Under the pieces are notes generated by a model, which saw only the letters and a list, made by a program, of their open reading frames with translations, had not been told where the DNA came from and made no database searches. Shown here in pieces: positions 7,101-50,649 of a stretch of 64,000 bases of DNA. Every line of letters starts with the position of its first letter. Position 1 is the first letter of the stretch. The translations under genes and the position numbers were made by a program. Origin of the DNA: Propionibacteriaceae bacterium (GTDB taxonomy: Bacteria; Actinomycetota; Actinomycetes; Propionibacteriales; Propionibacteriaceae); NCBI GenBank assembly GCA_030537675.1, contig JAUNVL010000001.1:7656-71655 (forward strand). The letters run 5' to 3'.

Positions 7101-7892
7101 GGGCGCCGCCGTCCCGTTGAGATCCTCCATGAGGATCTGCGAACTGCGCTCGTCCTCGAGTATGAGCGTGTGCACCGCGTCGATCCAGCGCACGTCGTCC
7201 AGCGCCGCAATCTTGGGCAGTGCTTCGGTGGGCAACTCTGCGGTGATGCTGCGAAACACATCGGATGATTCGGGGGCGATTTCCAGGACACTCCCGCCGA
7301 GCGAGATCACCAGAGCTGCGACGCCGTCGATGTCGCCCTCCGCCAGAACGCCGATGTCGACCGCCTCAATGGGGCCAAGACCACGACCGGTTCCCACGTC
7401 CTTGTTCCCGCTCAACAGGTCCGGGTTGACCTTGTACGCAGGCATGAGTGGGCCGGTCCATTCGACGAACGGAAGCGCTGCTGCGGATGCGACGGTCTCC
7501 GCGTCGGCGCGCACAAAGTACGCATGCGGGCTGACGGCTTCAACGAGCCGGACACCGCGTTCGGCGAGTGTCGACAGCCACGATTCCTGCACTGGTCCGA
7601 CCAGTTGCAGCAAATGGTTGAGGCCAGCACCGGACTCGGTGGAGGTGAACCCGTCCGGAGTGGGAGGGAGCTTGCCCGTGGCAGTGTCGATCTCGTAGCT
7701 GAAGAGACGGAGTGTGTGGGGGTCGCGCACAGCTTTGACGCGCCATCCCTGTTTCCTCAGTCGCTCCACCTGCGTGGCTTCGGCGTCGACGATGAAGCCG
7801 CGATCAAGCGCACTCACGACGCCGATACCTTCAGCCTCGACCATTGGTCTGTCGAGCTCGGTTCGGTGGATGACAACGTAGCGTTCAGACAT
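4107..7892 (-). CDS. Large (1261 aa) multidomain subtilase: N-terminal propeptide-like region, peptidase S8 domain, beta-sandwich, von Willebrand factor A domain and an unassigned ~330-aa C-terminus; no signal peptide
   Basis: S8 triad motifs are VCDTGID (Asp292, codon 7019-7017), DGHGTHVAG (His330, 6905-6903) and GTSMASPHVAG (Ser526, 6317-6315). A vWA MIDAS motif LDRSGSM plus LLSDGYDN lies at residues ~750-930 (5103-5651). ATG 7892 has GAAGGG 7 nt upstream. The N-terminus MSERYVVIHRTELDRP has no hydrophobic or twin-arginine leader. Confidence 0.85.
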   Translation of the reverse strand: MSERYVVIHRTELDRPMVEAEGIGVVSALDRGFIVDAEATQVERLRKQGWRVKAVRDPHTLRLFSYEIDTATGKLPPTPDGFTSTESGAGLNHLLQLVGPVQESWLSTLAERGVRLVEAVSPHAYFVRADAETVASAAALPFVEWTGPLMPAYKVNPDLLSGNKDVGTGRGLGPIEAVDIGVLAEGDIDGVAALVISLGGSVLEIAPESSDVFRSITAELPTEALPKIAALDDVRWIDAVHTLILEDERSSQILMEDLNGTAAPNTLPNTGYTANLTALGVNGAGVTIAVCDTGIDTNNAATIHADLAGRLAFAVNSAGTAVAGADTDGHGTHVAGIAGGNGTSGDVDPQGFRLGQGVAPGADVGLVSSAGTVEALVRQSALQGADVMNNSWAMNGPNYSANDRVIDLGVRDADPTSTDQTPLVIVFSAGNSGSGAGTVTKNPKNAILVGNSLNARPGELTANDDIRGIATSSSRGPATDGRTLPTVVAPGTDIISTYSPAGWRTAPYRDTGGTLHPVHAPMSGTSMASPHVAGTAALLIDWRRRTRDGRTPSPALIKALLVSGTEPMTGGTNGAGGTLAAGPNNNVGWGRVSIENMLLQAPAADRGPKIIVDQRHAFTAMGQEYTIRVAVADAALPLRVALSWTDAPATVGANPTLVNDLDLEVRHVVTNQLFHGNNFAGAFSTTGGVADDLNNTEVAIIQNPTGVYEITVVAANIAASARTDIAGGWQDFALVVDNAEVPASDPVSVVTVLDRSGSMQAYGYVETTRQTSRQFTDLMGVDDSIGVVSFGDSGDEEYPGTGAPRVIVDQSTRDAATAAVDSIGFGGCTFMGAGIEKAGSVLAGAGTRRAMVLLSDGYDNKGCDQSNPAKPWATDAAAALPADLPIYSCAMGPASDQALLAQLADNTAGRYYFMPSIDDLFEIYNYIRGQVTGDGVIVNESSVASVSQVSGWVDGCAESALFTVAWHDRSLQYVSNEPKSPREIAVRLRSPSGRWLPRSATEFLRHAGDGYVSFAIDDPQPGLWTVEVATNRDQHTPYTVGGFVRSPLRLRIDVPTLLRVGDSLGVRATVGDLRGGVDGIKARTSITSPFAPPAAYIDRYRDKLMDMKLPRSFHSDGKPSKDHELLARLVLLRDQLMVKTGKDILARRVDALTLGETTLRSTRQDRFDTLRWERQGFLKDVASGGRMGGTTIMNPGHVAVIDPRVVLHPKRAGTLKGDYRETKIPGSYSVAVTAVGFSPSCKTRFVRKEFASVAVIDKRRF

Positions 7893-8117: not shown

Positions 8118-10178
8118 CTACGGCGTGGGCAGTGCTTCCTCGGCATCCGGCGACGGGCCGGCGGGGTGGTGCCGTGACAGGAATTCGACGAGTGGAATCG
8201 GATCAGGGAGGTCGTCGAGGAGGGCGATGAGGTCGTCACGGTCCTCGGGGGACACTCGTTCGAGACCGCCGAAGAGCTGCATCGTCCCTCCAGCGGGTAC
8301 GACTCTGGCGCAGTACAGCCCGCCCAGCTCCACCTGTGTGCCGATGGTTGCCGTGCGTACCTCGTGGATGTCGCCGGTCCGGACGTCTCGAAGCGTGATT
8401 GATTCGCCTGGCTGGGTGCTGACGACTTCGTGTACGGATCGCTCGATGTGCAGCCACTCCTGGGCCATCGAGGCTTCGTCGGAGGGCAGCAGCTGGCCGC
8501 GCAGAGCCAGGAACTCCTGGAATGCCCCACCTTCGAACAACATGACGTCGCGGGCGAGCTCGTCCAAGAACGCTCGCTCCAGTGCGTCGGGATCATCCAC
8601 GTACCCGGAACGGGCATGGGCGACGTCCTCGAGCAGAGCAGCAGAGGGACCAGCCAGCAGGTCGGTGATCGCCTTCTGGTAGAGCCACGCGGCCCTGTCC
8701 TCCAGCGACAACTGTTCACGGTTGAGGTGGCATTGCTTGTACTTGCGTCCCGAGCCGCACCAGCAGGGGGCATTCCTGGCAAGTGCCGGGTGGGACGTGG
8801 TCTGAAAAGCCTCCAACATCTGCACGAGGGGCGCATCGGGCAGTGCTCCGGCGCGCCGCAACAAGGACAGTCCGCGCTCTGCGTCGCCTCGATCGCTGGC
8901 GAGACGGGCCAGCGATATCAGCGTCAGCGGCCACGAGGGATCCAGAGCCTCGGCGGCGCGGAAAGACTGTTCAGCGGACTCGATGTCCCCGACATGCTCG
9001 TGGGCCCTGCCCCGCAGCCAGAGCATCGCCGGACGAGCAGCGCGCGGTGCGACCTTCTCGAAGGTGTGGGTGAACACGTCCAGGGCAGTGGACGAGAAGC
9101 CGTCGGCGGAGCTCGCTTCCCACAGGAATGTCTCCACGACGATGGGCTCCTCGAAGTAGTCCAGGGCGTCGCGAGGGTCCATGAAGAGGCTGTCGTCGTC
9201 GAGGTCCGTGTCGCCCGTCACCGCTCGTGCGCGCTGCAGCAGATGGGGCAGCGGGGCCCCGCCATCGTCCCAGTCGGCCTCGTCCGAGCCATCGAAGATC
9301 GTTTCCACTTCGTCGCGGATCCGCTCGAACAAGACCATTGCCGTCAATACGGCCGCGCCCTCCTCAAGGTCCAGGTCGTGGCGGTTCATCATCGCCCCCA
9401 CGCGGCTGCTGGCCCTCCAGAGGTCGAAGTCGAACCCTGCCGGCGCCACCCACTCACCCTCCAGCACGAGTCCGATGGCGGGGAGGAGTTCTGACAGGGG
9501 TGCGATTGGCTCCCGGAAGGCGTCATTGCTCTTGTCGCAGGCCATCCACACCGCAACTGCGATCCTTTCCGGACGCTCCGGTTCCTGGCCCAGCCGTGCG
9601 GCGATCGAGGCAGCAGCCGTCGACTTCTTCACGGCGTCCACGGCACAGAGGTCGAACCCGGCTTCGGTGATACGAATCCCGACGAGGTCTCCCGCCTCCA
9701 CACCGCGCCCGGCCAGATGCCCGACGGGCAACAGCCACGCCTCGCCCTGTGTGAGAGCAGATGTTCCCAGCCCACGCTCTTCCAACAACTCGACGCCGGA
9801 CCAGGGCGTCACCGCCACGATGGGAGATGCGTCTACGAGCGTTTGGTAGGTGGCGCTCTCTGTCAGCATGGCGACAGCCGCCAGGTCTGGGCCGACTTCG
9901 AGGACGTCGTGGGTGACCTCCAGCGCACTCACCCGGTGCGTGAACACTCGGCCATCCAGGAAACTGGGGAGCCAGACGAGGCGGTCGTCAGCCAACGTCA
10001 CCACCAGTTCCTCGCCCCCGTCGAGAACCTCGAAGAGGCGGTCCTGCGCATCCTCACCCTGGAACTCGGCGCGCTCTGAGGCCAGGGCTGCGATGAGCTC
10101 GGCCGGAGCCATTGGTCCGCCGGATGACAGGAGGGTGCGGATCGCAGTCACGAGCGGCTCAACGGAGGAGTCAGACAT
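8118..10178 (-). CDS. SEC-C motif (CWCGSGRKYKQCH zinc-ribbon) domain protein with TPR-like helical segment, 686 aa
   Basis: ORF 8118..10445. I moved the start to ATG 10178 (MSDSSVEPL...) because the upstream extension overlaps the neighbouring gene 10318..10911. The SEC-C motif is encoded at 8727-8765. The TPR-like stretch is AEQSFRAAEALDPSWPLTLISLARLASDRGDAERGL. Confidence 0.8.
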   Translation of the reverse strand: MSDSSVEPLVTAIRTLLSSGGPMAPAELIAALASERAEFQGEDAQDRLFEVLDGGEELVVTLADDRLVWLPSFLDGRVFTHRVSALEVTHDVLEVGPDLAAVAMLTESATYQTLVDASPIVAVTPWSGVELLEERGLGTSALTQGEAWLLPVGHLAGRGVEAGDLVGIRITEAGFDLCAVDAVKKSTAAASIAARLGQEPERPERIAVAVWMACDKSNDAFREPIAPLSELLPAIGLVLEGEWVAPAGFDFDLWRASSRVGAMMNRHDLDLEEGAAVLTAMVLFERIRDEVETIFDGSDEADWDDGGAPLPHLLQRARAVTGDTDLDDDSLFMDPRDALDYFEEPIVVETFLWEASSADGFSSTALDVFTHTFEKVAPRAARPAMLWLRGRAHEHVGDIESAEQSFRAAEALDPSWPLTLISLARLASDRGDAERGLSLLRRAGALPDAPLVQMLEAFQTTSHPALARNAPCWCGSGRKYKQCHLNREQLSLEDRAAWLYQKAITDLLAGPSAALLEDVAHARSGYVDDPDALERAFLDELARDVMLFEGGAFQEFLALRGQLLPSDEASMAQEWLHIERSVHEVVSTQPGESITLRDVRTGDIHEVRTATIGTQVELGGLYCARVVPAGGTMQLFGGLERVSPEDRDDLIALLDDLPDPIPLVEFLSRHHPAGPSPDAEEALPTP

Positions 10179-10236
10179 GTCCGCGACACTACCGGCGCAG
10201 CGGTGGGTCGGCGACGTGCGGGGAGGCAGTCCATGG

Positions 10237-10264
10237 CCGGGAACTCCGTCGCTGGAGTTCCCGG
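10237..10264 (-). terminator. Hairpin terminator after the His-rich secreted protein gene
   Basis: CCGGGAACTCC (10237-10247) pairs perfectly with GGAGTTCCCGG (10254-10264) across a 6-nt loop. It lies 54 nt downstream of the stop at 10318. Confidence 0.5.
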
Positions 10265-10317
10265 GATGAAAAGGAGGACCGGTGGATGTTGACCGCAAGT
10301 CCTCGTCGTACTGCTCC

Positions 10318-10911
10318 TCAGCGGCGTCCGTGGCCACCGCGGTGGATGGAGACGATGCCTTCGTCAATCGCCTTCTGTACGACATCTGCCTCGCTCTGGG
10401 TGAGGGTGCCGTCGGTGACAGCCTGATCAAGGGCCGCCTTCTCACGGGCGGATGACGCAGAGCTTCGTTCCCTCTGCAATCCCTCCATGGCTTGTGTCAC
10501 CTCGGTTTCCTCGATGCCCAGCTCCTCAGCCAGCGCCTTGGCGAATGCAGCCCGGTGTGACTCCCTGGCCGCATGCCTTTCGGCCGGACTGGTGTGCTGA
10601 GGGCGGGCGTCCAGCGCTCGCTGGCGGACCACCGACACCGCATCGGACACATCCGATTCGGGCAGTCCCAGCGCACTGGCCAGCGCAGAGACGTCGAGAC
10701 CGCTGCCCTCGTGGCCTCGGTGCCCCGGGTCGGCATGGTGCCCTCGGTCCTCGTGGTGGCCTCTGGCCGGGGTGGTGTCGCCCGGCAGTGTGGACGAGGT
10801 GGCGCTGGGGGTTGGTGAGGGTGTGGGGGTCTCGGCCTGGGCGAACTGGGTCATGCCCAGACCCACCGCCAAGCTTGCCGCGGCAGCCCCTGCGATGAGT
10901 TTCTTGCGCAT
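10318..10911 (-). CDS. Secreted hypothetical protein with a His-rich tract and three helix-hairpin repeats
   Basis: Sec-type signal peptide MRKKLIAGAAAASLAVGLGMTQFAQA. A PT-rich linker follows, then the His cluster GHHEDRGHHADPGHRGHEG. Three similar segments follow (LASALGLPESDVSDAV / LAEELGIEETEVTQAM / TDGTLTQSEADVVQKAI). Confidence 0.7.
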   Translation of the reverse strand: MRKKLIAGAAAASLAVGLGMTQFAQAETPTPSPTPSATSSTLPGDTTPARGHHEDRGHHADPGHRGHEGSGLDVSALASALGLPESDVSDAVSVVRQRALDARPQHTSPAERHAARESHRAAFAKALAEELGIEETEVTQAMEGLQRERSSASSAREKAALDQAVTDGTLTQSEADVVQKAIDEGIVSIHRGGHGRR

Positions 10912-32691: not shown

Positions 32692-32878
32692 CGTCCACCT
32701 TCTTTCCGTACCGGAAAGACTACTGCGCCTTCGGACACGGTCGGACGAATGCGTCTGCGGGGCCGGCTGCGCATCCAAAACCACCCCGACGGGTGAGACC
32801 TTCTGAACCGCTTCGTCCCTATCGTTTTTGGTGGGCCATGGCGGTCCACAACGCATTTCACAAGGCATGGAGGAGACG

Positions 32879-33964
32879 ATGGCGAACCCCGATCAGTCAC
32901 CGAGCAGCGGTGGCACTGACGGTTCCACGGCACCGTTCGACGAAGTCGACACCACTGCGGACGCAGGCCTGGACATTTTCGACGACCAGACGCGCGTCGG
33001 CTCCGACCGCGACGGAGGTCTGGATGACTTCGGCGACGGTTTCGTCTCCGACGCGTCGGATGACGCCTGGGCACCAGCGGTGCTTTCCGATGACACGCTC
33101 AGCCCCACCCCGCAGCCCGCCTTCGTTGCCGATGATCGCAACGATGACCTGGCGGAAGCGCTCGCTGTCGACGACAGGGGATGGGATTCCCCCCACGACG
33201 GTGGGGCACAGGATGCGGCTGATGGTGTGAAGCAGGCAGCGGCAGCGGCAGGTGACCGGGTCAACAAGGTTGCCGACAGCGCGCAGGACGCAGCAGCTGA
33301 GGTCAAGGACACGGCTGTGGCGGCGGGCTCAGACCTCGCGGATTCCGTGACGGAACAAGCTGGCGAAGTGGCTCACGAAGTGGGTCACCAGAGCCGACGT
33401 CTCATGGACGAGGGCATGTCCGAGTTGCAGTCGCAGGCGGGTGCCGGACAGCAGCGACTGGCGGAGCTTTCCCGATCCTTCGGAGGCGAACTCCAGGCGA
33501 TGCGCAGCAACACGGACCAGTCCGGACCTCTGACCGATCTGGTTGGCAGCGCCGAGCAAATGTTCGATGACGCCGCCAACTGGCTGGAGCGCAGTGAACC
33601 GGCCGATGTGCTGGATTCCGTGCGACGCTACGCATCACGCAACCCGTGGACCTTCCTGGCCATCTCGGCCGGTGTGGGCTTCGTCGGGGCGCGGATCGTG
33701 CGAGGCCTGAAGAAGCCGGACGACAATCGGCAGCCCAGGGCGGCCATGGATGTCCCCGCCGGATACCACGGCGGCAACACCGCAGCCATCTCGCCGATCG
33801 AGGACCCCTCCTACGCAGGGGGAGCGCGGTACGGAGCTGAGGAGCGCGTGCAGCCGAGCGCGACACCGGCCACGTCCTTCGCGCCAGTGGGTGATGCCGG
33901 GTTCGGAGGCACCGAAGGACTACCTCCGATGTCGGACGCTCCCGGCGGCACGCGAGGTCTGTGA
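32879..33964 (+). CDS. Hypothetical tail-anchored protein: acidic disordered N-terminus, apolipoprotein/LEA-like helices and a C-terminal TM (DUF883/YqjD-like tail)
   Basis: ATG 32879 is preceded by GGAGGAG, within ORF 32828..33964. The C-terminal motif is RYASRNPWTFLAISAGVGFVGARIV. Confidence 0.65.
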   Translation: MANPDQSPSSGGTDGSTAPFDEVDTTADAGLDIFDDQTRVGSDRDGGLDDFGDGFVSDASDDAWAPAVLSDDTLSPTPQPAFVADDRNDDLAEALAVDDRGWDSPHDGGAQDAADGVKQAAAAAGDRVNKVADSAQDAAAEVKDTAVAAGSDLADSVTEQAGEVAHEVGHQSRRLMDEGMSELQSQAGAGQQRLAELSRSFGGELQAMRSNTDQSGPLTDLVGSAEQMFDDAANWLERSEPADVLDSVRRYASRNPWTFLAISAGVGFVGARIVRGLKKPDDNRQPRAAMDVPAGYHGGNTAAISPIEDPSYAGGARYGAEERVQPSATPATSFAPVGDAGFGGTEGLPPMSDAPGGTRGL

Positions 33965-34452
33965 TGACGTCGCACCAACCCCCGGAACAAGTGGGCTCCC
34001 ACGTCGTGGGCCAGAGTGAGTCAGACGAGAGCTACCAGCGATTCAGGCGTGAGGACCGCTCGCTCGGAGAGATCGTCTCCGAAGTGATGGACAATGCCTC
34101 CACCCTGGTGAAGCAAGAAGTTGAACTCGCCAAGGCAGAAGCGAAGGTCGCCGCTGGCAGGGCAGGCAAGGGTATAGGGATGTTCGTCGGCGCCGCCGTC
34201 GGTGCCCTCATGGCGCTGGTTGCCCTGACGCTGTGCCTGTGGTGGGCAATAGGCGTGCTGATCGGAACCGAAACCTCGCCGGCACTGGGCTGGAGCGGCC
34301 TCATCGTCACCATCATCTGGCTCGCCGTGGCAGGCATTCTGGCTGCCGTCGGCAAGAGCGAGCTGGACAAGATCAAGGGTCTCCCGAAGACCCAGGACAC
34401 CATCACAAAGATCCCGAACGCGGCAACCGGTCACGAGGAGAAGAATCGATGA
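33961..34452 (+). CDS. Small two-TM membrane protein of the actinobacterial Holin-X (phage holin family) type
   Basis: 163 aa. The start overlaps the upstream stop (GTGA at 33961-33964). Pattern: LVKQEVELAKAEAK, then two hydrophobic helices, then a K-rich tail. Confidence 0.65.
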   Translation: MMTSHQPPEQVGSHVVGQSESDESYQRFRREDRSLGEIVSEVMDNASTLVKQEVELAKAEAKVAAGRAGKGIGMFVGAAVGALMALVALTLCLWWAIGVLIGTETSPALGWSGLIVTIIWLAVAGILAAVGKSELDKIKGLPKTQDTITKIPNAATGHEEKNR

Positions 34453-35263: not shown

Positions 35264-36022
35264 TCATTGGTATGCCTTGGGATGGACGGGGACGTCGTGC
35301 GCGTCCAGCCACGCGATGATGGCCGCGCGCTCCTGAAGCACGCGATCGCTGACGTCGTCGTTGCTGAGGATGAAATAGCGGTCCTGAAAGGTGCTGCCGT
35401 CCTTCCTCACGGAGTGCGGATTGGCCCCCAGCTCCAACAGCCGCAGTACCAGCGCCCCGGATTGGGTGCTGGCGCAGGTGTCGATGGGGCGCCCCCGATT
35501 CGGGTCCGTCCAGTCCACGTCGGCCCCGGCGTCCACCAGCAGGGTGAACACCGGCTCGTCATTCTGGAGACAGGCGATTTTCAGGGCGGTGGTGCCGGTG
35601 GCTGCGCGCACCACGTCCGGGTCGCTCCCCGCCTGCAACAGCAGTTCGACCATGGCAGGCTGCGTCCAGGCGGCGGAGTGGAGTGGAGGCTCACCGCCCT
35701 TGCCCGGCAGGTCTGGCGTGGCCCCCATCTCCAGAAGGCCCGCCATGCCATCGAGGCTGCGAGCAGTTGCCGACCATTGGAGCATGGTGATCCCATCAAT
35801 CCCGATGGCATTCGGGTTCGCGCCGTCCCGGATGAGCCGGGAAATCTCTGCCTTCTCACCTGCGGCTACAGCCTTCGCCAGGGTCAGGTCCTGCGAGCTG
35901 GTCCACCACTGGCTGGGATCGGGCCCTGAGAAGATCGTGGAGCAGCCGGACAGAGCCAGCGACAACCCGATGAGCACGACCACCAAACGGAGCATGCCCG
36001 CAGTCAAGCACGTGGAACGCAC
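35264..36022 (-). CDS. Ankyrin-repeat lipoprotein
   Basis: Lipobox LSLALSGC-S. At least four ANK-like repeats are present (G.T.L..A......V..LL..GA.P motifs, for example GGEPPLHSAAWTQPAMVELLLQAGSDPD). Confidence 0.75.
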   Translation of the reverse strand: MRSTCLTAGMLRLVVVLIGLSLALSGCSTIFSGPDPSQWWTSSQDLTLAKAVAAGEKAEISRLIRDGANPNAIGIDGITMLQWSATARSLDGMAGLLEMGATPDLPGKGGEPPLHSAAWTQPAMVELLLQAGSDPDVVRAATGTTALKIACLQNDEPVFTLLVDAGADVDWTDPNRGRPIDTCASTQSGALVLRLLELGANPHSVRKDGSTFQDRYFILSNDDVSDRVLQERAAIIAWLDAHDVPVHPKAYQ

Positions 36023-40976: not shown

Positions 40977-41024
40977 GAGAATCTCAGGAAAAATTGGGGA
41001 TTTCCTCAGAAAAGAGTTAATGTG

Positions 41025-41054
41025 GAGGCTCCGGCGGTTCTTTCCCGGAGCCTC
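41025..41054 (+). terminator. Hairpin after copA, upstream of rpfB
   Basis: GAGGCTCCGG (41025-41034) pairs perfectly with CCGGAGCCTC (41045-41054) across a 10-nt loop. Confidence 0.45.
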
Positions 41055-41078
41055 TACTCTCTTGGAGATCTCATCCCA

Positions 41079-42287
41079 ATGCGCAAGAACCTCTGGATTC
41101 CCGCAACAGCCGGAGGCGTCGCTCTTGCGCTCGTCTCCACCGTGGGCATTGCCTCGGCGCTGCACAAGAACGACATCGAACTCGTCGTCGACGGCGCAGC
41201 GTCCTCCATTGCTGTGCGGGAGAACACCGTCAGCGAGGTGCTCGAACTCGAGGGCATCACCGTCGGCGAACACGATGTTGTCCTCCCCGAGGCCGACACG
41301 CGCATCACGCAGGACATGGAGATCACCGTCGCGTACGGTCGGCCGCTGACGGTCACCGTGGACGGGAAGCAGCGACAGGTCTGGACCACCGCAACCAGCG
41401 TGGGCGAAGCCCTGGGGTTCCTGAATCTCGACCAGGCGGATTCCAAGCTCTCGGCGTCCCGCTCCACGTCGATCGGCCGCACCGGGCTGGTCATGGAAGT
41501 GGCCACTGCCAAGGACGTGACGATCACCGTAGCGGGCGCCCCGACACAGCTCACCATCGCCGGGACCGTCTCCGACGCGCTTGCCGAAGCCGGCGTCACA
41601 CCCGACGCGGACGACATCGTCACGCCCGAGCCCGCCACCGTCCTCACCGATGGCCTGCAGGTCACCTTCGTGGACGTGGAGGTGAGCTCGAGCAGCAAGA
41701 GCGTGGCCGTGCCGTTCTCCTCGGCGCAGATCACTTCCGACACGATGGAGAAGGGCACCAAGAAGGTCACCACCAAGGGCGTCCCGGGCGTCAAGAGGGA
41801 GACCTGGACCGACGTCCACCACGATGGGGCCCTCATCAGCTCAACGCTGGCTGAATCCGTGATGTCGAAGCAGCCCGTGCACCAGGTCACCACCGTCGGC
41901 ACGCTGGTCAAGAAGGTGGAGCCAGCACCAGCAGCCCCCAAGGCGAAGGCCTCATCAACACCGTCGAAGTCGGCAGAGCCGAAGTCCTCGAAGTCTGAGG
42001 TCCCCAACGCTGAGGCCCCAAAGTCTGAGTCCTCCTCCGGCAAGGGCATCAACCTGGCCCGGGCTGACATGTGGGACCGTATCGCTCGCTGCGAATCCAC
42101 GAACAACTGGAGCATCAACACCGGCAACGGCTACTACGGTGGTCTGCAGTTCAATCTCCAGACCTGGCGCTCCGTGAACGGGCAGGACTTCGCCGCCTAC
42201 CCCCACCAGGCCAGCCGCGCCGAGCAGATCACCGTCGCCAACCGTCTCTACGCCATCCGCGGCACGCAGCCCTGGAGCTGCGCCTGA
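41079..42287 (+). CDS. rpfB: Resuscitation-promoting factor RpfB-like (signal/TM, DUF348 repeats, G5 domain, Rpf lytic transglycosylase domain)
   Basis: The C-terminal Rpf domain is WDRIARCESTNNWSINTGNGYYGGLQFNLQTW...QPWSCA. G5-like GVPGVKRETW is present, with three DUF348-like repeats upstream. ATG 41079 gives MRKNLWIPATAGGVALALV. Confidence 0.85.
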   Translation: MRKNLWIPATAGGVALALVSTVGIASALHKNDIELVVDGAASSIAVRENTVSEVLELEGITVGEHDVVLPEADTRITQDMEITVAYGRPLTVTVDGKQRQVWTTATSVGEALGFLNLDQADSKLSASRSTSIGRTGLVMEVATAKDVTITVAGAPTQLTIAGTVSDALAEAGVTPDADDIVTPEPATVLTDGLQVTFVDVEVSSSSKSVAVPFSSAQITSDTMEKGTKKVTTKGVPGVKRETWTDVHHDGALISSTLAESVMSKQPVHQVTTVGTLVKKVEPAPAAPKAKASSTPSKSAEPKSSKSEVPNAEAPKSESSSGKGINLARADMWDRIARCESTNNWSINTGNGYYGGLQFNLQTWRSVNGQDFAAYPHQASRAEQITVANRLYAIRGTQPWSCA

Positions 42288-43404: not shown

Positions 43405-44715
43405 TCAGGGCTTGAGGCGCGCCTCGCTCGCCACCTTCTCGTACAGGCCGAGCATCTCGACGGCCTGTGACTCGATGGTCCACTGTCCCGCAAGCCGTTT
43501 GGACGTCTCCGCAGCATGGGCCCGCCACACCGGATCGTCCAGCTTGTTGATGATCCGCATCAGCCCTGCGGCCAGTGACGCGGCAGTTGGGCGTGCCAGT
43601 TCGGCGTTCACCCCCGGCTCCAGTACGAGTTGTAGCCCCGGATCAACGGACACGATCGGGAGTCCAGCCAGTGCGGCCTCGTGCAGCACCAGCGCCTGCG
43701 TGTCGGTCTGGCTGGGGAAGGCGAAGACGTCTGCCATGCCGTAGAAGGCCCCCAGTGCCTCGCGCTTCTGCTCGCCGGGCAGGATGATGTTGCCTCGCGC
43801 GGCTCCGTGGGCGAGCACCCTCTTGATGCGCGGGTAGCGCTGCCAGTCGCCCACCACCATGAGTCTGGCATCGGGGCGCTGGGCGGCCACGAGGGCGAAG
43901 GCGTCGACGAGCAGGGGAATGCCCTTTTCCGGTGCGATGCGGCCGGCGTACAGGATGAGCGGACCCGGTTCCCGCGGCACAGGTGGCGGTCCGGGAGGCA
44001 GCGGGTCGACGCCGTTGGGCACAACGACGACGTTGGCGGTGGGTGCGATTTCACGGCAGCGTACGGCGGTCTTGGGGGACGGGGTGGTCACCAGCTGCGC
44101 TGTTTCCAGCATCTTCTGGCACACCCCGAGAAGGGACGCCGTGGAACGGCCGCGGTCCTCGTAACGGATGACCGCTTCCTTGAGGTCGTGGCTGTCCACC
44201 AGTTCGCCCTTGGTGATGCGCGCGAACGCGTGCAACACCCCGGTGAGCAGTGGGAGCACGGCTGAGTAGTGGTCTGCATACGCGTCGAAATCGGTGTGCC
44301 AGGTGAGCATCAGCGGGATCTTCAGCCGCCTCGCCGCCCATACTCCGAGGGCGCCGACGGTCCCGAAGCCGTGGACGTGGATGACGTCGGGCCGGATGTC
44401 GGCGATCCTGTCGATGGTCCTGTCGAAATGACGTCCGTTGGCCACCCGGGTGGGCATGTTGGGCACCTTGACTGAGGGCAGGCGGATCTCACGGCGACCC
44501 TCTCGGCCCAGCTGGGGATTGGGGCCTTTCGCCTTCGGGGCCACCACCACCACGTTGTGCCCGGCGTCCAACAGATTGCCCTCGAGTTGCTGCACTGCGA
44601 ACATCAGCCCGTTGCTGCCGGGGCCGTAGTTGTCCGTGAACTGCGCAACCGTCAATGGCCGCGTGGCGGCGCTCAGGTGTGGTTGCTCTGTCACGGTGGC
44701 CACTCTATCGGCCAC
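43405..44715 (-). CDS. Glycosyltransferase family 4 (GT-B fold)
   Basis: Motifs GPGSNG and FPSQTDTQALVLHEAALAGLPIV (an EX7E-type motif). The start is uncertain: GTG 44715, 44721 or 44703 are candidates. The track ORF start at 44778 would overlap the upstream lipoprotein gene. Confidence 0.8.
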   Translation of the reverse strand: MADRVATVTEQPHLSAATRPLTVAQFTDNYGPGSNGLMFAVQQLEGNLLDAGHNVVVVAPKAKGPNPQLGREGRREIRLPSVKVPNMPTRVANGRHFDRTIDRIADIRPDVIHVHGFGTVGALGVWAARRLKIPLMLTWHTDFDAYADHYSAVLPLLTGVLHAFARITKGELVDSHDLKEAVIRYEDRGRSTASLLGVCQKMLETAQLVTTPSPKTAVRCREIAPTANVVVVPNGVDPLPPGPPPVPREPGPLILYAGRIAPEKGIPLLVDAFALVAAQRPDARLMVVGDWQRYPRIKRVLAHGAARGNIILPGEQKREALGAFYGMADVFAFPSQTDTQALVLHEAALAGLPIVSVDPGLQLVLEPGVNAELARPTAASLAAGLMRIINKLDDPVWRAHAAETSKRLAGQWTIESQAVEMLGLYEKVASEARLKP

Positions 44716-44738: not shown

Positions 44739-45377
44739 CTAGGGTGCCGGCTGCAGTGAGCCCGGAGTGAGCGTGCACTGCGAGGGTGCGGCTGGGATGC
44801 GGAGTTCGAGATCCATCAGCCAGCCCTTGGCAGCAGTGAACCGGGGACCGCCTCCCGGCATGTCGGAGACCACCACTGGCTCGCCCCCCGGGTTGGTCAC
44901 CAGTTCGGACGCGGCGGGGAAGCCATGACGCGCCAGAGCAACGTTGAAGACAGACAGGAAAAGGTCCATGTCCACCGCGGCCACGTCGAGGCCCTCCTTG
45001 CTGCTGTCGCGCAGTGCGACGATGCAGATTCCGTCGCCATCATGGTCCACAAAAGTTCTCTCGACGTAGACGACGCTCTCCAACCCCCACCACTGCGTCG
45101 GGCTCCCCAACGCCTCTTCGGCGGCGATTCGTGCGTCGGCAAACAGATCGGCGTACTGCTGAGCCATCTGTTCGGGGTCCCGAGAGACCGTGGCCGGCGA
45201 TGGCGACCACGTGGGAAAGTTGCCGGAGATGGTGGGTGTACCGGAGGCGGTCGGAACAGAAGGGGTGGTGTCCTGCGACTCGATGGTTGTCGCCGGGCCC
45301 TCGGCGGGGCCACCTGGGGAGCAGCCCACGAGCAGCAGGAGCGCCAGGGCGCCGACCGCCGCCAGTCGGTGCGTCAC
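44739..45377 (-). CDS. Lipoprotein, hypothetical; its C-terminal domain is paralogous to the upstream 125-aa protein
   Basis: Lipobox LLLLVGC-S. The GTG start at 45377 overlaps the upstream stop (GTGA at 45374-45377). It shares the motif block S-x-x-N-x-x-L-x-x-HGF-(x)-P...GE..V.V.D with ORF 45374..45751. Confidence 0.7.
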   Translation of the reverse strand: MTHRLAAVGALALLLLVGCSPGGPAEGPATTIESQDTTPSVPTASGTPTISGNFPTWSPSPATVSRDPEQMAQQYADLFADARIAAEEALGSPTQWWGLESVVYVERTFVDHDGDGICIVALRDSSKEGLDVAAVDMDLFLSVFNVALARHGFPAASELVTNPGGEPVVVSDMPGGGPRFTAAKGWLMDLELRIPAAPSQCTLTPGSLQPAP

Positions 45378-45751
45378 GCTGGTACCGCAGCCACGTGGGC
45401 CTCGGCCGCTCCGGACAACGAGATCGTGAGCTGCGCCTGGTGGCCGTCAGCCACCGTGACGTGCCACTCGCCCCATTCCTCCTCGATGAAGGAGTCGATG
45501 GGATGGAAACCATGGTGTTCGAGGACTTCGTTGACGGCGCTCCTCAACCCGGCACTGTCGACGGTCTCCAGGGCAACGCCGCTCCCGAAAATTGGACCCA
45601 CGCGGACCAGGCGCGGGTCATCCGTGCGAGCGGCGTCCGCCCTGTCACGCCACAACAGGGGGCCGATCTGGGTCTCGAGTGCTCGCTGCAGTGAGTCGAG
45701 CAATGACCCGTAGCGCATCGAAAGCTGGCGCACTCCGTCGTCGCCGTTCAT
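45374..45751 (-). CDS. Small cytoplasmic hypothetical protein (125 aa), candidate immunity/partner protein of the calpain-like protein
   Basis: In-frame part of ORF 45374..45904. ATG 45751 is preceded by AAGGAGGGG and lies 20 nt after the protease gene stop. There is no signal peptide. Confidence 0.6.
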   Translation of the reverse strand: MNGDDGVRQLSMRYGSLLDSLQRALETQIGPLLWRDRADAARTDDPRLVRVGPIFGSGVALETVDSAGLRSAVNEVLEHHGFHPIDSFIEEEWGEWHVTVADGHQAQLTISLSGAAEAHVAAVPA

Positions 45752-45770
45752 TCTCGCCCCTCCTTGTAGA

Positions 45771-46973
45771 TCACTGGGCCGGCCACTGCATGACACCGTT
45801 GGTCCACCGGGTGTACTCGTCCTCGGTGAGTTCCACGATGTGTGGATGGGAGGCCGGGCCATGGGGATTCTGCAACCTGATCTTTCCATCATCGGTGAAG
45901 CCAATCACCGAGTAGGCATGGTTACCGAAGATTTTCTTCTCCGCGAGGAAGTCCTTCGGGAGGGGGTCAGGTTGGGGGTCCGGGGCATTGGTGGTGGCCA
46001 CCATCACAGCTCCGGGCGGTTGGGTGGACAGCGTGCTGCGAATGCTGTCGAAGCTGGTGTTGGAGGACTGCGTCTCCGTGTAGTTCTTCCCCAACACGAT
46101 CTTGCCGGTCAGGGGGAAGTTGCTCGATTCGATCTCCGGGTGGAGTTGGCGCATGGCCTGGACGTAGATCGACAGGTAGTTGGGTTCCTTGGTCCACGCA
46201 TTCCTGGGGTCAGGGTCCTGCAGGTGGCGTGGGTCAACGGTCGTGCGTTGTGCTGCTCCCGTCTCTGGGTCGTACATCGTCACCTCGTAGGTCTGGCTGA
46301 CTGGATCCCACACCACGTGCTGGCGGATGAACTCGGGGTTGGAGCGGCCGAGGCTCATGAGCGGCGACAGGAATGCGCAGAGGGGAACCGAACCCTGTGC
46401 GCTGTCGTCCACCTGGTCCAGGATGCCGTCGTCCGAGAAGTCGAGAGGGCCGAGGTCGAATGTCTGGATGTCCAGTCCCAGGGCGACAGCCAGGGCTGAA
46501 GCCGCACTCATGTCCACCACGGTGGCGACGTGCAACAACTGACGCACGTTGGCGCTGATGGCACGCGCCAGCGCCAGGCGTCGAAGCAGCACTTTCGGGT
46601 CCAGCAACGCGGTCTCGGGGATGGGGAGGGCGCGGCCGGAATCCAGCACCCTGATGCGGTTCGCATCCGCGATGGCCAGCATCTGCAGTAGTTGGCCTCG
46701 CAGTTGTTCCATCCGCGCGGCCGCATTCGTCAGGACGTCAGCGAGCTTCGGCAGAACCTTGGCCAGGCGCTCCACCTCCTGTGCCTGTTCCTCGCATCGA
46801 GCGCCGATCATGTCCCCGATCGTGTCCCGCCAAGCATCCTTGATGGACACTCCGGTGCGGCGGAGTGATTCCGCCTGATCGCTGCCCTGCGAGGCTGCGT
46901 ACCGGAAGGCAGCCGCGCGGGATTCCCACGGCCCTGCGTCAAAGGTCGACAGCTTCTCGACGTCGATGCTCAC
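45771..46973 (-). CDS. Two-domain protein: helical N-terminal domain (~185 aa, no signal peptide) fused to a calpain-like (peptidase C2, papain-fold) cysteine protease domain
   Basis: Calpain-type motifs are QGSVPLCAFLSPLMSL (Cys199, codon 46379-46377), GNHAYSVIGF (His352, 45920-45918) and IRLQNPHG (Asn369, 45869-45867). The GTG start at 46973 overlaps the upstream stop (GTGA). Confidence 0.8.
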   Translation of the reverse strand: MSIDVEKLSTFDAGPWESRAAAFRYAASQGSDQAESLRRTGVSIKDAWRDTIGDMIGARCEEQAQEVERLAKVLPKLADVLTNAAARMEQLRGQLLQMLAIADANRIRVLDSGRALPIPETALLDPKVLLRRLALARAISANVRQLLHVATVVDMSAASALAVALGLDIQTFDLGPLDFSDDGILDQVDDSAQGSVPLCAFLSPLMSLGRSNPEFIRQHVVWDPVSQTYEVTMYDPETGAAQRTTVDPRHLQDPDPRNAWTKEPNYLSIYVQAMRQLHPEIESSNFPLTGKIVLGKNYTETQSSNTSFDSIRSTLSTQPPGAVMVATTNAPDPQPDPLPKDFLAEKKIFGNHAYSVIGFTDDGKIRLQNPHGPASHPHIVELTEDEYTRWTNGVMQWPAQ

Positions 46974-47272
46974 ACGCCTTCTCCACCTGTGAAGTTGAAT
47001 CCTTCAATGGCGTCGGTGTTCCTCGCCTCCACCTTCTGGATGGAGGTGGCGGAAGCGTGCATGGACTCGGCGAGCGCGGCGACGTTGCCGCCGAGCGTTG
47101 CGAACTGGGCGAGGAGGTGGGCATCAAGTTGTCCGAGGACGGCGTCCACCTCGAAGTCCCCCGACGCTGCACCGACACTGAAATCAGACCCGAGCCGCCG
47201 CACTGCGTCAGCCACCGAGCCGACCCCTTCGGCCAGCATGTGGACCTCGCTGGGTGTCACATCAAGTCCCAT
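46970..47272 (-). CDS. 100-aa all-helical, Trp/Tyr/Cys-free protein resembling EspC/DUF2580 or WXG100-superfamily type VII secretion substrates
   Basis: ATG 47272 is preceded by AGGAGGTG. The sequence MGLDVTPSEVHMLAEGVGSVADAV...ALAESMHASATSIQKVEARNTDAI has the size and style of EspC-like proteins. It is translationally coupled to the calpain-like gene. Family assignment is tentative. Confidence 0.6.
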   Translation of the reverse strand: MGLDVTPSEVHMLAEGVGSVADAVRRLGSDFSVGAASGDFEVDAVLGQLDAHLLAQFATLGGNVAALAESMHASATSIQKVEARNTDAIEGFNFTGGEGV

Positions 47273-47442
47273 GGGTCACCTCCTGGTGTTGCGCCCCATC
47301 GTAGGCGTCGCCCGGTTCGCTGGACGCTGCCCCCTCATCGCCCCTGGCGGATGCGCAGAGCAGCTGTGCATTTCATCCCCCGGGTCGACAGCCCGTGACT
47401 GCTTCGGCCATCGTGACAACCAGAATTCCATAGGAGGAAACC

Positions 47443-50400
47443 GTGCAGCAGCGACGCAGCGCATCCTGGGGTTGGTTCACAGCCGGCCTCGCCACCATCC
47501 TGGCAGTGGGGGCGAGTCTCGTCCCCGTCTCCACCGCGAGCGCCGCATCCGTGGTGTTCGAGGCGGAGGCCGAAACCAACATCCGCACCGGGCAGGCTCG
47601 GGTCCTCGACCGTCCCGAGGCCTCCGGCGGCAAGGCCATCGGCTATGTCGGGGGAGGGAACGGGACGATCGGCATCAAGGTCGACGTCATCGATCCCGCC
47701 CGTACCTCACTCACACTGAAGTGGATCTCCGGTGAGAACCGGGACATCCGCTACACCTGCAACGGCGGCGCGGAAACGCTCCTCGACCTTCCGGTGGGGC
47801 CGAACTGGAGCACTCCGCAGAGCACACCCCTGACCTGCGCCGGCCTGACGGCGGGTGAGAACACCATCACGTTGTGGAACACCACTCCGGCACCAGACAT
47901 TGACGCTCTCGTGGTCTCCACCTCACAGCAGGTGATCTTCGAGGCCGAGGATCCGTCCAACGACCTCACCGGCCAGGCCCGGGTCCAGGAGCGCGCAGGC
48001 GCATCGGGCGGCAAGACGGTCGGCTACATCGGTGGCGGCAACGGCACGCTGGGCGTGCGCGTCAGCATCGAGGCAGCAGGCCAGAAAGAGTTTGAACTCC
48101 AATACATCTCGGGGGAGAAGCGGGACATCCGCTACCAGTGCCCCGGTGCCTCGGAATCCACGCTGCTGAACCTCCCGGCAGGTCCCAACTGGAGCACCCC
48201 CGTGACACACGAGTTCAGCTGCTACATCCCGCAGGGACTGCACGTCATCACCCTGTACAACACCGGTCCCGCCCCTGATGTGGACCTGCTCCGCATGGTC
48301 GGTGGCATCGACGACGGTGGCGGCCCCGTCACCACCCCCACACCGACGCAGGGTTACCCCACCGAGGATCCGTGGGCCGATGACCCCGCCAATGCGAAGC
48401 CCGCTTCCGCCCAACAGGACCCCGACTGGATGCTGATCGACGACTACTCGTCCGAGTTCAGCGGTACCGACGTGGAGGGCAAATTCAGCCGATTCCCCGA
48501 CCAGTGGGGTTGGCGTGCCGAATGGCGCTGGGACGACGAGGCCGCGGTGGTGCAGGACGGCAATCTGGAGCTGAAGCAGAGCTATGACCCCACCAACAAC
48601 TACAACGTGGTGCCCAAAGGCTGGCAGACGGCGCTCGTTGACCTGAACCTGCAGAATGCCAACACCGACACCGTCACCACTTATGCCGCCCATACGGGCA
48701 ATACGGGTCTGCGGCACACGTACTTCAATCAGTACGGCACACGGACCCAGCAGACCTTCACCGGCCTGGCAGCCGGCACGCACCAATTCTCCGCCTACGC
48801 GAAGTCCGAGGGCACCGAGGGCACGGTGGCGCTCGTCGCGAAGAACTGCACGGCCGCAGGCTCGGAACAACGCGAAGAGATTCCACGCAGCAATGGCGGC
48901 TGGAAGCAGTACAGCCTGGTGGTCGACGTCGTCGCCGGCAGCACGTGCGTCGTCGCACTGGAGTCGACGGGCAAGACCTTCTCCGACGTCGCCATGTTCG
49001 ACGATGCGGTGTTCACAGCCCCCGGAGTCACCACGAACCGCCTGGCCAACCCAGGGTTCGAGACGCTGGACACCACCCACAACAAGTCGGGCGGCGTCCA
49101 CATGACGGAGCCGGTGAAGTACGGCTACTTCGAGGTGCGGGCCAAGTCCGGCACGCCGTTCCCGGGTACATGTCTCGCCTTCTGGCTGGACGGCCGGGAA
49201 GGCGACTACTCCACGGAGCTGGACATCGTCGAACTCGGCGAGAAGCCCGGCAACCCCAACGCGGTCGACTTCGCCGCACACCGCTGGCCGTCCAAGGCAC
49301 TGGGCCCCAACCACCAGTCCAACGGCGGCGACGTCTACCAGGCGCCCTGGGACCCGTCAGCCGACTTCCACACCTACGGCTTCGAATGGGAGCCCGGTGT
49401 GCAGCGCTGGTTCGTCGACGGCGTACTCCGCGCCGAACGCAAGGACCCCGTCTTCGACGCGGCCGAGCAGTACATGATCCTCTCGCTGGGACTGCGTGCC
49501 CCCTACGTCAACAACCCGGCGGCCTACCCGAACGCCTACGACAATGCGAAGCCGTCGCAGTTCGACTACGTGCGCGTCTGGAAGCCCCGTGCATTCGAGG
49601 TCCCCAGCACCGTGGTGGGTGACTACCAGGCGTCCTTCGTCTACTCCGACGGCTGGACCGCTTCCGGCGGCAACCGCACCAGCGGCACCGCAGGTGCCAC
49701 CTGGAAGTTGCGCTTCGACGGTGACGGCGTCGACGTCGTTGCCCCGGCGGGTGCCGGGCAGGGACGCGTTGCCTACTCCATCGACGGCGGCCAGCCGATC
49801 GTCGTGGATCATGGCGCTGCCACCTCCTCGACCGTGTGGTCGAGCCCGGTGGTTCCTCGCGGCAAGCACGTGGTCACAGCAAGGGTGGTCTCCGGCGCGG
49901 TGGGTGTCTCGTCGGTGATTGTCCGCAACACGCTCGATGACTCCACGCCGTCACCGTCACCGTCGCAGTCGCCGGCACCGACGGTGACCGTGACCACGAC
50001 GGCCACTGCCGAGCCGAGCATCACCTACGCCCCCACCGTCACCGCTACCAGCAGCGCCACCGCGACGGCCACGTCCAGTACGACGGCCACCGCCACCAGC
50101 AGCGCCACCGCTACGGTCACCTCCACGGTCACCACCACCGCCAGCGCCACTGCCACGGCGACGGCCAATGTCACGGTCACCACGACGGTTACGGGATCCA
50201 CAACCCCCACCGTGACGACTGCGCCGGTTCCGCAGCCCGTCGACATCTACACGGCCCCCGGGATCCACGAGGTCAATGGTCGACGATGGTTCACGACGTG
50301 CGAAGCGTATTCGGCCACGTTCCGATGCACGACGCAGATCTGGTCCACCCAGATCAGCGAGGTCAACGGGACTTTCGTGTCCACCACCGGCTGGCACTTC

Positions 50401-50649
50401 AACAACCTGACCTATGTGGCGTCGCCACGCAGCCTGTGGGCGGGCAACCCCCTGGCCGTCACCGGATCGTGGACGGCCACCGATGGCCGTCGCTGGCGCA
50501 CCGAGTGCGACACGGCCGTCACCGGCGGCAACGGGTGTCGCAGCTGGGTCACCTCCCGCATCATCGAGAGCACTCGCCAGGCCGATGGCACCTACCGCCA
50601 CGCCTGGGTCACCAAGGAGGTGTTCAACAACATGGTCCGGTTCAGCTGA
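47443..50649 (+). CDS. Secreted multidomain GH16 glycoside hydrolase (two N-terminal CBM-like modules, split GH16 catalytic domain, further beta-sandwich module, Thr/Ala/Ser linker, Cys-containing C-terminal repeat domain)
   Basis: GTG 47443 is preceded by AGGAGG. Signal peptide ...LVPVSTASA-A. The GH16 catalytic motif ELDIVE is at 49216-49233, with flanking YGYFEVRAK, AFWL and FHTYGFEW. Confidence 0.85.
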   Translation: MQQRRSASWGWFTAGLATILAVGASLVPVSTASAASVVFEAEAETNIRTGQARVLDRPEASGGKAIGYVGGGNGTIGIKVDVIDPARTSLTLKWISGENRDIRYTCNGGAETLLDLPVGPNWSTPQSTPLTCAGLTAGENTITLWNTTPAPDIDALVVSTSQQVIFEAEDPSNDLTGQARVQERAGASGGKTVGYIGGGNGTLGVRVSIEAAGQKEFELQYISGEKRDIRYQCPGASESTLLNLPAGPNWSTPVTHEFSCYIPQGLHVITLYNTGPAPDVDLLRMVGGIDDGGGPVTTPTPTQGYPTEDPWADDPANAKPASAQQDPDWMLIDDYSSEFSGTDVEGKFSRFPDQWGWRAEWRWDDEAAVVQDGNLELKQSYDPTNNYNVVPKGWQTALVDLNLQNANTDTVTTYAAHTGNTGLRHTYFNQYGTRTQQTFTGLAAGTHQFSAYAKSEGTEGTVALVAKNCTAAGSEQREEIPRSNGGWKQYSLVVDVVAGSTCVVALESTGKTFSDVAMFDDAVFTAPGVTTNRLANPGFETLDTTHNKSGGVHMTEPVKYGYFEVRAKSGTPFPGTCLAFWLDGREGDYSTELDIVELGEKPGNPNAVDFAAHRWPSKALGPNHQSNGGDVYQAPWDPSADFHTYGFEWEPGVQRWFVDGVLRAERKDPVFDAAEQYMILSLGLRAPYVNNPAAYPNAYDNAKPSQFDYVRVWKPRAFEVPSTVVGDYQASFVYSDGWTASGGNRTSGTAGATWKLRFDGDGVDVVAPAGAGQGRVAYSIDGGQPIVVDHGAATSSTVWSSPVVPRGKHVVTARVVSGAVGVSSVIVRNTLDDSTPSPSPSQSPAPTVTVTTTATAEPSITYAPTVTATSSATATATSSTTATATSSATATVTSTVTTTASATATATANVTVTTTVTGSTTPTVTTAPVPQPVDIYTAPGIHEVNGRRWFTTCEAYSATFRCTTQIWSTQISEVNGTFVSTTGWHFNNLTYVASPRSLWAGNPLAVTGSWTATDGRRWRTECDTAVTGGNGCRSWVTSRIIESTRQADGTYRHAWVTKEVFNNMVRFS
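47551..48300 (+). repeat. Tandem duplication encoding two ~123-aa CBM6/35-like modules inside the GH16 gene
   Basis: Module 1 begins VVFEAEAETNIRTGQARVLDRPEASGGKAIGYVGGGNGTIGIKV...ENRDIRYTC...PVGPNWSTP. Module 2 begins VIFEAEDPSNDLTGQARVQERAGASGGKTVGYIGGGNGTLGVRV...EKRDIRYQC...PAGPNWSTP. Confidence 0.75.
49945..50235 (+). repeat. Low-complexity ACC/GCC-rich repeat DNA encoding a Thr/Ala/Ser/Pro linker
   Basis: Encodes PSPSPSQSPAPTVTVTTTATA...TATSSATATATSSTTATATSSATATVTSTVTTTASATATATANVTVTTTVTGSTTPTVTTAPVP. The motif GCCACCGC(C/T)ACCAGCAGCGCCACCGC recurs. Confidence 0.7.

Follow-up and report, generated by a model that had tools for sequence, protein, structure and literature searches.

A conserved four-gene cassette of Propionibacteriaceae with a predicted calpain-type protease, a WXG100-like partner, and two paralogous candidate protectors

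The subject of this study is a cassette of four genes, here called A, B, C, and D, that lies on the minus strand of a 64,000-nucleotide stretch of contig JAUNVL010000001.1 from a Propionibacteriaceae bacterium (assembly GCA_030537675.1); this whole stretch is referred to below as the window. The four open reading frames (ORFs) were confirmed in the sequence. Gene A (46970..47272, minus strand) starts with ATG, encodes an all-helical protein of 100 amino acids (aa) that resembles EspC and WXG100 proteins, and is preceded by AGGAGGTG (47277..47284, minus strand), which reads as a Shine-Dalgarno sequence 4 nucleotides (nt) 5' of the ATG. Gene B (45771..46973, minus strand; 400 aa) starts with GTG and is translationally coupled to A, its start codon (46973-46971) overlapping the TGA of A (46972-46970) as GTGA. 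Gene C (45374..45751, minus strand; 125 aa, ATG start) encodes a predicted cytoplasmic alpha/beta protein with an LppA/DUF4853-like fold, a candidate inhibitor or immunity protein of B, and gene D (44739..45377, minus strand; 212 aa, GTG start) encodes a predicted lipoprotein that is a candidate extracytoplasmic paralogue of C. The gap between the stop of B and the start of C is 19 nt, one less than originally counted, and contains the putative Shine-Dalgarno sequence of C, AAGGAGGGG (45757..45765, minus strand). The GTG of D again overlaps the TGA of C as GTGA. The original prediction, made from the sequence alone, had described four minus-strand genes with tight junctions, and its coordinates, both GTGA overlaps, and both ribosome-binding sites proved correct. 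A program-made ORF list starts C farther upstream, at a TTG within B (45904); we adopt the 125-aa form because the ATG at 45751, the ribosome-binding site, and the alignment of homologues support it. The third-position GC content of the cassette genes (0.73 to 0.81) is near that of the other coding ORFs of the window, and a scan of the cassette for promoters and terminators was uninformative.

The C-terminal half of B had been recognized by eye as a calpain-type catalytic domain, and the results obtained here bear this out. The domain comprises residues 181 to 400 (45774..46433, minus strand) and is assigned to the calpain-type (MEROPS C2) cysteine proteases. A profile of the B family matched the catalytic cores of calpains 9, 1, 2, and 8 in the PDB with E values of ~2e-4 to 7e-4, and in the profile-to-PDB alignment C199 (in QGSVPLC), H352 (in NHAYSV), and N369 (in QNPHG) align with the motifs of the calpain triad. 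The respective codons, verified in the sequence, are located at 46377-46379, 45918-45920, and 45867-45869 on the minus strand. All three residues are conserved at ≥90% in an alignment of 25 family members, and the signature of the family, derived from ~25 full-length proteins, is QGxYGDC ... HAYxV ... NPWGP. The structure predicted by AlphaFold2 from the family alignment (predicted local distance difference test score [pLDDT], 92.2; predicted template modeling score, 0.83) divides into a 165-residue helical N-domain, a linker, and an alpha/beta protease domain. When the PDB was searched with this model by Foldseek, the top match was the calpain-1 core 1tl9_A (E 2.6e-5, probability 1.00, 271 columns), with a template modeling (TM) score of 0.48 on the target, and the next match was cathepsin L at E 0.029. 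Scanning B of the window alone against Pfam and NCBIfam gave no calpain match. Matches to Peptidase_C2 of Pfam are found in 13 of the 25 family members (best 1.4e-9) and, among the 85 more distant relatives from HMMER, in 82 (best 5e-34), and we count B in PF00648 because its membership passes through these relatives and not through its own score. Judged from the alignments and the model, the C-terminal half of B carries a calpain-type head, and the by-eye domain call was correct.

The relatives of B come from HMMER, run exhaustively against 1.84 billion cluster representatives. This returned 117 proteins, of which ~25 are full-length, with ~400 aa and the same two-part architecture. Word-indexed searches with B or with the 25-sequence profile gave only 2 and 4 matches, as helical low-complexity words saturated the candidates, and the search with B contributed a single relative, at 73% identity. 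Searching for loci with a 6-sequence subset of the 25-sequence alignment yielded 4 loci each from the genome and metagenome collections. The original prediction had likened the cassette to polymorphic toxin loci, in which homologues would keep the N-domain and exchange the head, and among close relatives this fails: the calpain domain is retained in 24 of 24 full-length relatives, and the proteins that match only through the N-domain are fragments, apart from P0107, which is frameshifted, and P0028, probably a chimera. Among the relatives, the calpain-type head is found behind several different leader types. A W-x-G motif is present in the N-region of 40 of the 85 distant relatives, 28 of which have it at positions 40 to 49, the usual place of WxG in WXG100 proteins. 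Pfam recognizes T7SS_signal in 2 and WXG100 in 1 of these 85 proteins, and a hydrophobic leader is found in only 7. Relatives from Cellulomonas, Microbacterium, and other Micrococcales bear the NCBI name "C2 family cysteine protease."

The N-domain of B (residues 1 to 165; 46479..46973, minus strand) is predicted to form a WXG100/PPE-like helical bundle. In the AlphaFold2 model, a helix of residues 14 to 47 is followed by a turn at W48, a helix of residues 51 to 104, a beta-hairpin of residues 107 to 117, and a helix of residues 126 to 164, and the N terminus of B has neither a Sec nor a Tat leader. By Foldseek, the helical hairpin of B superposes on EsxA, GBS1074, SAG1039, and the EsxA of Geobacillus with probabilities of 0.99 to 1.00, TM scores of 0.77 to 0.87, and root mean square deviations (rmsd) of 1.6 to 2.2 Å; the best superpositions, on EsxA, GBS1074, and SAG1039, have a probability of 1.0, TM scores of 0.80 to 0.87, and rmsd of 1.6 to 2.0 Å. 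These Esx hairpins cover ~90 columns, and PPE4 and PPE15, taken from complexes of PE, PPE, and EspG, superpose on the N-domain over ~175 columns. At the sequence level, the B family profile matched EsxA and EsxB in the PDB at E 0.01 to 0.9, and the Pfam families WXG100_2 and PPE are matched by 8 of 25 (best 6e-8) and 1 of 25 (E 0.002) relatives of B, respectively. The conserved W48 is placed exactly at the modeled turn and is followed by a conserved Gly at +5 (W-R-D-T-I-G53), not at +2. A helical N-terminal region lacking a leader had been noted from the sequence, and its assignment to the WXG100/PPE type is supported by these structural matches and by those of the relatives to WXG100_2.

Protein A is free of Trp, Tyr, and Cys, as originally noted. 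On its own, A of the window has no Pfam match at E ≤1, including PF06013 and PF10824. A profile built from 10 members of its family matches, over the full length, EsxA of Staphylococcus aureus (1.2e-4), GBS1074 (5.6e-4), and ESAT-6 of Mycobacterium tuberculosis (2.3e-3) in the PDB; designed coiled coils score as well as or better than these Esx proteins. Three of the 10 members match T7SS_ESX_EspC of Pfam (best 3.1e-5), and two match WXG100 (best 0.0015). These profile matches give moderate support to A as an EspC/WXG100-like partner. The genomic association with B is very regular: each of the 12 modules described below has an A-like gene of ~100 aa directly upstream of its B-like gene, and the stop of A overlaps the start of B in every module whose coordinates were read. 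An A-like gene adjoins the B-like gene in the distant loci L007 and L009 as well; in L009 it had not been called as a gene.

Downstream of B, C and D proved to be related to each other. Comparison of the C and D families by hhalign gave a probability of 98.8% and an E value of 1.4e-16 over 115 columns; BLASTP of C against D found nothing, and the paralogy is seen by profile-profile comparison only. D begins with a predicted signal peptide whose lipobox reads LVGC19; a Pro/Thr/Ser-rich linker leads from there to a C-like domain at residues ~71 to 194 (44796-45167, minus strand). According to this profile comparison, C and D are paralogues, and the same domain is predicted to be encoded for both sides of the membrane. 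D also has two extra cysteines, invariant in 7 D sequences (C118 and C201), which suggests that a C118-C201 disulfide could form outside the cell. This paralogy, together with the presence of D-like lipoproteins near distant WXG-calpain genes, had been missed in the original prediction. In L006, such a lipoprotein beside a distant WXG-calpain gene matches the C profile at E 4.3e-4 (Z = 1e6); for the one in L007, the match is borderline (D profile, E 0.039, Z = 1e6). In the position of C, these two loci encode beta-rich proteins of 124 aa (L006:2872-3246) and 94 aa (L007:11256-11540) without Pfam matches, which are candidates for a second, unrelated family of cytoplasmic partners. In a Propionibacteriaceae metagenome-assembled genome (MAG), the D-like gene is tandemly duplicated downstream of the cassette (L004:11612-12848, identical to L017), and the two copies, of 196 and 218 aa, are nearly identical.

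For the fold of C, the AlphaFold2 model (pLDDT 93.4) was compared with known structures by Foldseek. The best matches were 2v7s, the lipoprotein LppA of M. tuberculosis (E 9e-3, probability 1.0, TMq 0.58), and 4mjg, a DUF4853 protein (probability 0.92, TMq 0.46), and since D is paralogous to C, the D domain is assigned the same LppA/DUF4853-like fold. Both of these best matches are actinobacterial proteins, and LppA is, like D, a lipoprotein; the differences are that C has no sequence-level similarity to them and that the TM scores are only 0.46 to 0.58. Neither C nor D has a Pfam match, and C has none in NCBIfam. A joint C and D profile found neither LppA nor another chain among the PDB sequences at E <0.9, and we therefore draw the link to LppA at the level of the fold only. 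In M. tuberculosis, the genes for LppA and its paralogue LppB closely follow Rv2541 (~135 aa) and Rv2542 (~403 aa), whose size pattern is that of A and B. Our literature searches found nothing useful on LppA/DUF4853, PF25547, Rv2542, or a type VII secretion system (T7SS) in Tessaracoccus.

How often the cassette recurs was determined by scanning all ORFs of 20 fetched loci with hidden Markov models, which identified 12 non-redundant modules of the ~400-aa family. A-like and C-like genes are present in 12 of 12 modules each and D-like genes in 10 of 12, and the A-B-C(-D) arrangement thus occurs far beyond chance. The hosts are Tessaracoccus species, among them Tessaracoccus sp. OH4464 (NZ_RQYZ01), T. 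massiliensis (NZ_LN623540), and T. terricola (BAAHBS01), and MAGs of the Propionibacteriaceae. A-B is accompanied by C- or D-like genes even where the order has changed (L015) or identity is low (30% in L012; L006 and L007). The cassette behaves as a discrete accessory unit, because its flanks differ in every other genome. One MAG contains two paralogous modules in opposite orientations, ~5 kb apart and near gyrA (L015:2108-4561, minus strand, and L015:9295-11218, plus strand); in one of them, the C-like gene is located upstream of A-B, not downstream. In Microbacterium sp. Clip185 (CP117996; L013:9125-11239), three small coupled genes precede a WXG-calpain gene that has no downstream partner. 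One of their products is helical (98 aa) and one is beta-rich (89 aa); the third, of 107 aa, has two Cys residues and a membrane anchor at its N terminus. The idea that the 89- and 107-aa proteins are a cytoplasmic and exported paralogue pair was unsupported (pairwise E 0.53).

The two-part architecture of B has been catalogued before. Rawlings (2015, Biol Direct 10:66) listed fusions of a WXG100-type N-terminal domain with a C2 peptidase, three of them in Herpetosiphon aurantiacus and a single one in Segniliparus rugosus, and suggested that they are toxins exported by the T7SS; like B, they are without the accessory domains of eukaryotic calpains. Those fusions are recognized by Pfam, whereas B of the window and its closest clade are sub-threshold for both domains, and the passages on the fusions in that survey describe no partner gene, no downstream genes, no conserved cassette, and no experimental test. 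The original prediction knew of no characterized actinobacterial effector with a calpain-like head. This stands insofar as neither the passages of that survey that concern the fusions nor the further literature searched contains a characterized WXG-calpain protein, but the architecture itself had been catalogued. The cassette is therefore a divergent case of the WXG100-calpain T7SS-type effectors, already catalogued yet uncharacterized, and its new elements are the two-compartment pair of C and D and the LppA-like fold. The first 300,000 of the 357,715 characters of the polymorphic-toxin catalogue of Zhang et al. (2012) make no mention of calpain.

Several characterized systems share individual features with the cassette. 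The LXG toxins of the T7SSb of Firmicutes, such as TelA-LapA3-LapA4 of Streptococcus intermedius and EsaD-EsaE-EsaG of S. aureus, follow the same logic of one or more partners, a toxin with a helical domain, and an immunity gene. In contrast to them, the cassette occurs in Actinomycetota, whose machinery is of the T7SSa type, has no Pfam LXG match, and combines one partner instead of two with a fixed head and a paralogous pair of candidate immunity proteins, one for each of two compartments. Mycobacterial PE-PPE and EsxA-EsxB pairs superpose on the N-domain of B and likewise have a short helical partner gene directly upstream, but the cassette has no Pfam PE or PPE membership, no linked EspG, and no conserved YxxxD/E, and the C terminus of B is predicted to be a folded protease. 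AesA, AesB, and the "AesB-like" candidates of Schaalia odontolytica, as presented in a recent preprint, are Esx substrates with a helical N-domain of 110 to 180 aa, like that of B; AesA and AesB show mutual dependence on an adjacent helical partner (Wang et al., 2026 preprint). The C terminus of AesB is an intrinsically disordered, Gly-rich segment and no enzyme, and the parts of the preprint that deal with AesA and AesB describe no immunity-like genes. Similarly, actinobacterial Esx substrates are described as sharing an N-terminal helical bundle of 110 to 180 aa, and candidates outside the esx cluster as adjoining small genes for WXG100-like hairpins (bioRxiv 10.64898/2026.09.08.750141). The same source reports that 40% of the instances of the Esr pathway adjoin esx genes and that the pathway is prevalent in Actinomycetales and Propionibacteriales, which indicates, if indirectly, that Esx systems occur in those orders. 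Finally, Cpe1-Cpi1 is an interbacterial cysteine-protease effector with a small cognate immunity protein encoded alongside; as far as that report is concerned, it differs from the cassette in being from Gram-negative bacteria, in belonging to a different, papain-like family, and in having the cytoplasmic targets GyrB and ParE (PLoS Biol 2025, PMC12136450).

From these data, we consider it somewhat probable that the cassette encodes an Esx substrate pair, A and B, which exports a calpain-type protease, with C as its cytoplasmic silencer and D as a protector at the surface. The hairpin of A would pair with the WXG100/PPE-like N-domain of B to form a helical bundle that is recognized by an Esx machine encoded elsewhere in the genome, and this recognition would carry the C199/H352/N369 protease out of the cell. 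Before export, C would bind and silence the protease in the cytoplasm. D would present the same domain outside the membrane, held by its lipid anchor and stabilized by the disulfide, and would shield the producer and its kin from protease at the surface. A silencer in the cytoplasm together with a paralogue at the surface would imply a protease that works at the envelope or through it; most likely, it would be an antagonistic effector directed against the envelope or surface proteins of neighbors. The original prediction, in which the secretion route and the immunity role were already put forward as conjecture, is partly supported.

A number of observations weigh against an Esx-exported, C- and D-controlled protease. 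No gene for EccC, EccB, EccD, MycP, or EsxAB is found in the 64-kb window, as was originally stated for T7SS core genes, or in the flanks of the related loci, which extend up to 10 kb and are much shorter on several contigs. The domains of B are recognized with difficulty in the protein itself: it has no match at E ≤1 to PF00648 (gathering threshold, 23.8 bits), and its scores for WXG100_2 (PF25547; 21.3 bits, E 2.9e-4) and WXG100 (PF06013; 16.1 bits) are below the cut-offs of 27 and 27.3, respectively. The flanks of its catalytic motifs are atypical, with QGSVPLC in place of QGxYGDC and NPHG in place of NPWG. Two full-length relatives, P0011 and P0013, have Ser or Asp in place of the catalytic Cys and retain the architecture; they may be pseudo-proteases, and some members of the family may thus be inactive. 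The W48-x4-G53 of B is not a strict WxG, and A and the N-domain of B have no profile-profile similarity to each other (hhalign probability, 2.3%), for which reason we do not claim the two to be homologous. As to A, the original assignment to the EspC/WXG100 type is moderately supported by the match of the family profile to EsxA and by the 3 of 10 members that match EspC, but not by the YxxxD/E export motif, which is not conserved in the A family: the aligned position reads V-E-x-x-N, and the distant partner in L009 alone has N-Y-Q-Q-A-D there. C and D match no known inhibitor or immunity family, the sole hint being a WapI immunity match of one D homologue at E 0.092, and we know of no function or immunity role of the LppA fold. 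Lastly, the head is never exchanged among close relatives, and the cassette is therefore not classically polymorphic.

Some of these points raise the possibility that A and B are indeed secreted by an Esx machine but that the protease serves the producer's own surface instead of acting as an interbacterial toxin. It could process surface proteins, scavenge nutrients, or attack attached epibionts, with C being an export chaperone or pro-inhibitor and D a surface regulator, anchor, or substrate. We regard this as possible, if on the whole somewhat unlikely. A head that is never swapped and four genes that evolve together fit a dedicated enzyme system better than a toxin in an arms race, and the duplicated D genes of L004, the two whole modules in the single genome of L015, and the existence of LppA-fold lipoproteins for which no immunity role is known point in the same direction. 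One of the hosts, moreover, is Tessaracoccus sp. OH4464_COT-324, where we take COT to be a designation for a canine oral taxon. The Esx system of oral Actinomycetales is described as acting at the surface of the producer against Saccharibacteria (2026 preprint). In contrast, cytoplasmic and surface copies of one binding domain following an exported hydrolase correspond to the classical logic of self-protection, and the patchy occurrence of the cassette in varying contexts is typical of accessory conflict genes. In addition, between the window and L001, C (62%) and D (58%) are less conserved than B (73%).

If, on the other hand, the similarity to Esx proteins were misleading, the cassette could be unrelated to type VII secretion. 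In that case, B would act inside the cell as a regulatory or stress protease, with an N-domain that is a mere coiled-coil scaffold; A and C would serve as regulators in the cytoplasm, and D would be a neighboring lipoprotein that shares an old domain. The lack of a linked T7SS gene in any locus would then need no explanation, and neither would the sub-threshold or missing Pfam matches of A and B of the window or the lack of both a strict WxG and YxxxD/E. Helical hairpins are also known to draw spurious matches, and designed coiled coils are the top PDB sequence matches here. However, the structural match to WXG100 proteins spans whole chains at 1.6 to 2.0 Å rmsd and includes a conserved Trp at the turn, and many proteins related to the head possess a classical WxG leader or T7SS_signal of Pfam. 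D, which is paralogous to C, exported, and equipped with a conserved pair of cysteines, is kept beside distant WXG-calpain genes and ties the cassette to the exterior of the membrane. Moreover, the genes of T7SS substrates often lie apart from those of the machine, as is the case for mycobacterial PE/PPE proteins and Esx paralogues. We therefore judge a purely intracellular role to be quite improbable. Anti-phage defense, or an abortive module similar to a toxin-antitoxin system with B as a caged protease effector and C as its antitoxin, is hardly credible. In its favor, the module is compact, with tight coupling and a patchy distribution, and the GT4 gene downstream has a secondary match to "GT4-conflict" (E 8e-9), but this gene is not kept beside the cassette in other loci, the PADLOC models are matched by none of the four proteins or the GT4 protein, and a lipoprotein paralogue and a WXG-type leader would be out of place in an intracellular abortive system.

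Returning to the reading of an exported protease with two protectors, a further proposal, which we put forward tentatively and hold to be rather unlikely, is that C and D represent a new class of inhibitors of calpain-type proteases, acting as a two-compartment pair with silencing before export inside and shielding of the producer surface outside, where the protease would attack neighbors or attached epibionts. If true, this would be the first function for the LppA/DUF4853 lipoprotein fold, and the fold-level link to the LppA-type lipoproteins of pathogenic mycobacteria could make an orphan family testable as inhibitors. The pair of a cytoplasmic protein and a paralogous lipoprotein would also show protection of a producer on both sides of the membrane. 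To our knowledge, Esx effectors with enzymatic heads and immunity proteins are well characterized in Firmicutes only, and a protease-headed Esx effector outside the mycobacteria would broaden the actinobacterial picture. The cassette offers a minimal conserved system of four genes, which allows joint tests of an enzyme, the partner for its export, and two candidate inhibitors; should secretion or inhibition fail, it would represent a lineage-specific protease operon.

In the window, the cassette is located between a divergent gene for a secreted GH16/CE2 protein and a GT4 glycosyltransferase gene. The former (47443-50649, plus strand) encodes a predicted secreted protein of 1,068 aa with GH16 and CE2_N domains and a long, repetitive Thr/Ala/Ser-rich linker near the C terminus. 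The GT4 gene (43405-44700, minus strand), whose "GT4-conflict" match was mentioned above, starts ~30 nt after D and is not conserved beside the cassette elsewhere. A resuscitation-promoting factor of the RpfB type, with three DUF348 domains, a G5 domain, and a transglycosylase domain, is encoded ~2.5 kb downstream of the cassette (41022-42287, plus strand). Farther away, two adjacent genes encode an unusual pair of proteins. A 1,261-aa protein with subtilase (S8) and VWA domains and no obvious leader (4107-7892, minus strand) was considered as a mycosin-like T7SS protease and rejected, as its size and VWA domain are unlike MycP and no Ecc genes accompany it; the other (8118-10445, minus strand) has 775 aa, a SEC-C motif, and a marginal TPR match. 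A 996-aa ORF in L003, considered as EccC, is a helicase. At 32828-34452 (plus strand), an ORF of 378 aa without a Pfam match lies upstream of, and is coupled to, a gene of the actinobacterial holin-X family (PF07332, E 3e-26); no other phage genes were noticed near it. At 35264-36022 (minus strand), adjoining dnaB, a 252-aa predicted lipoprotein with an LSGC lipobox and ankyrin repeats is encoded.

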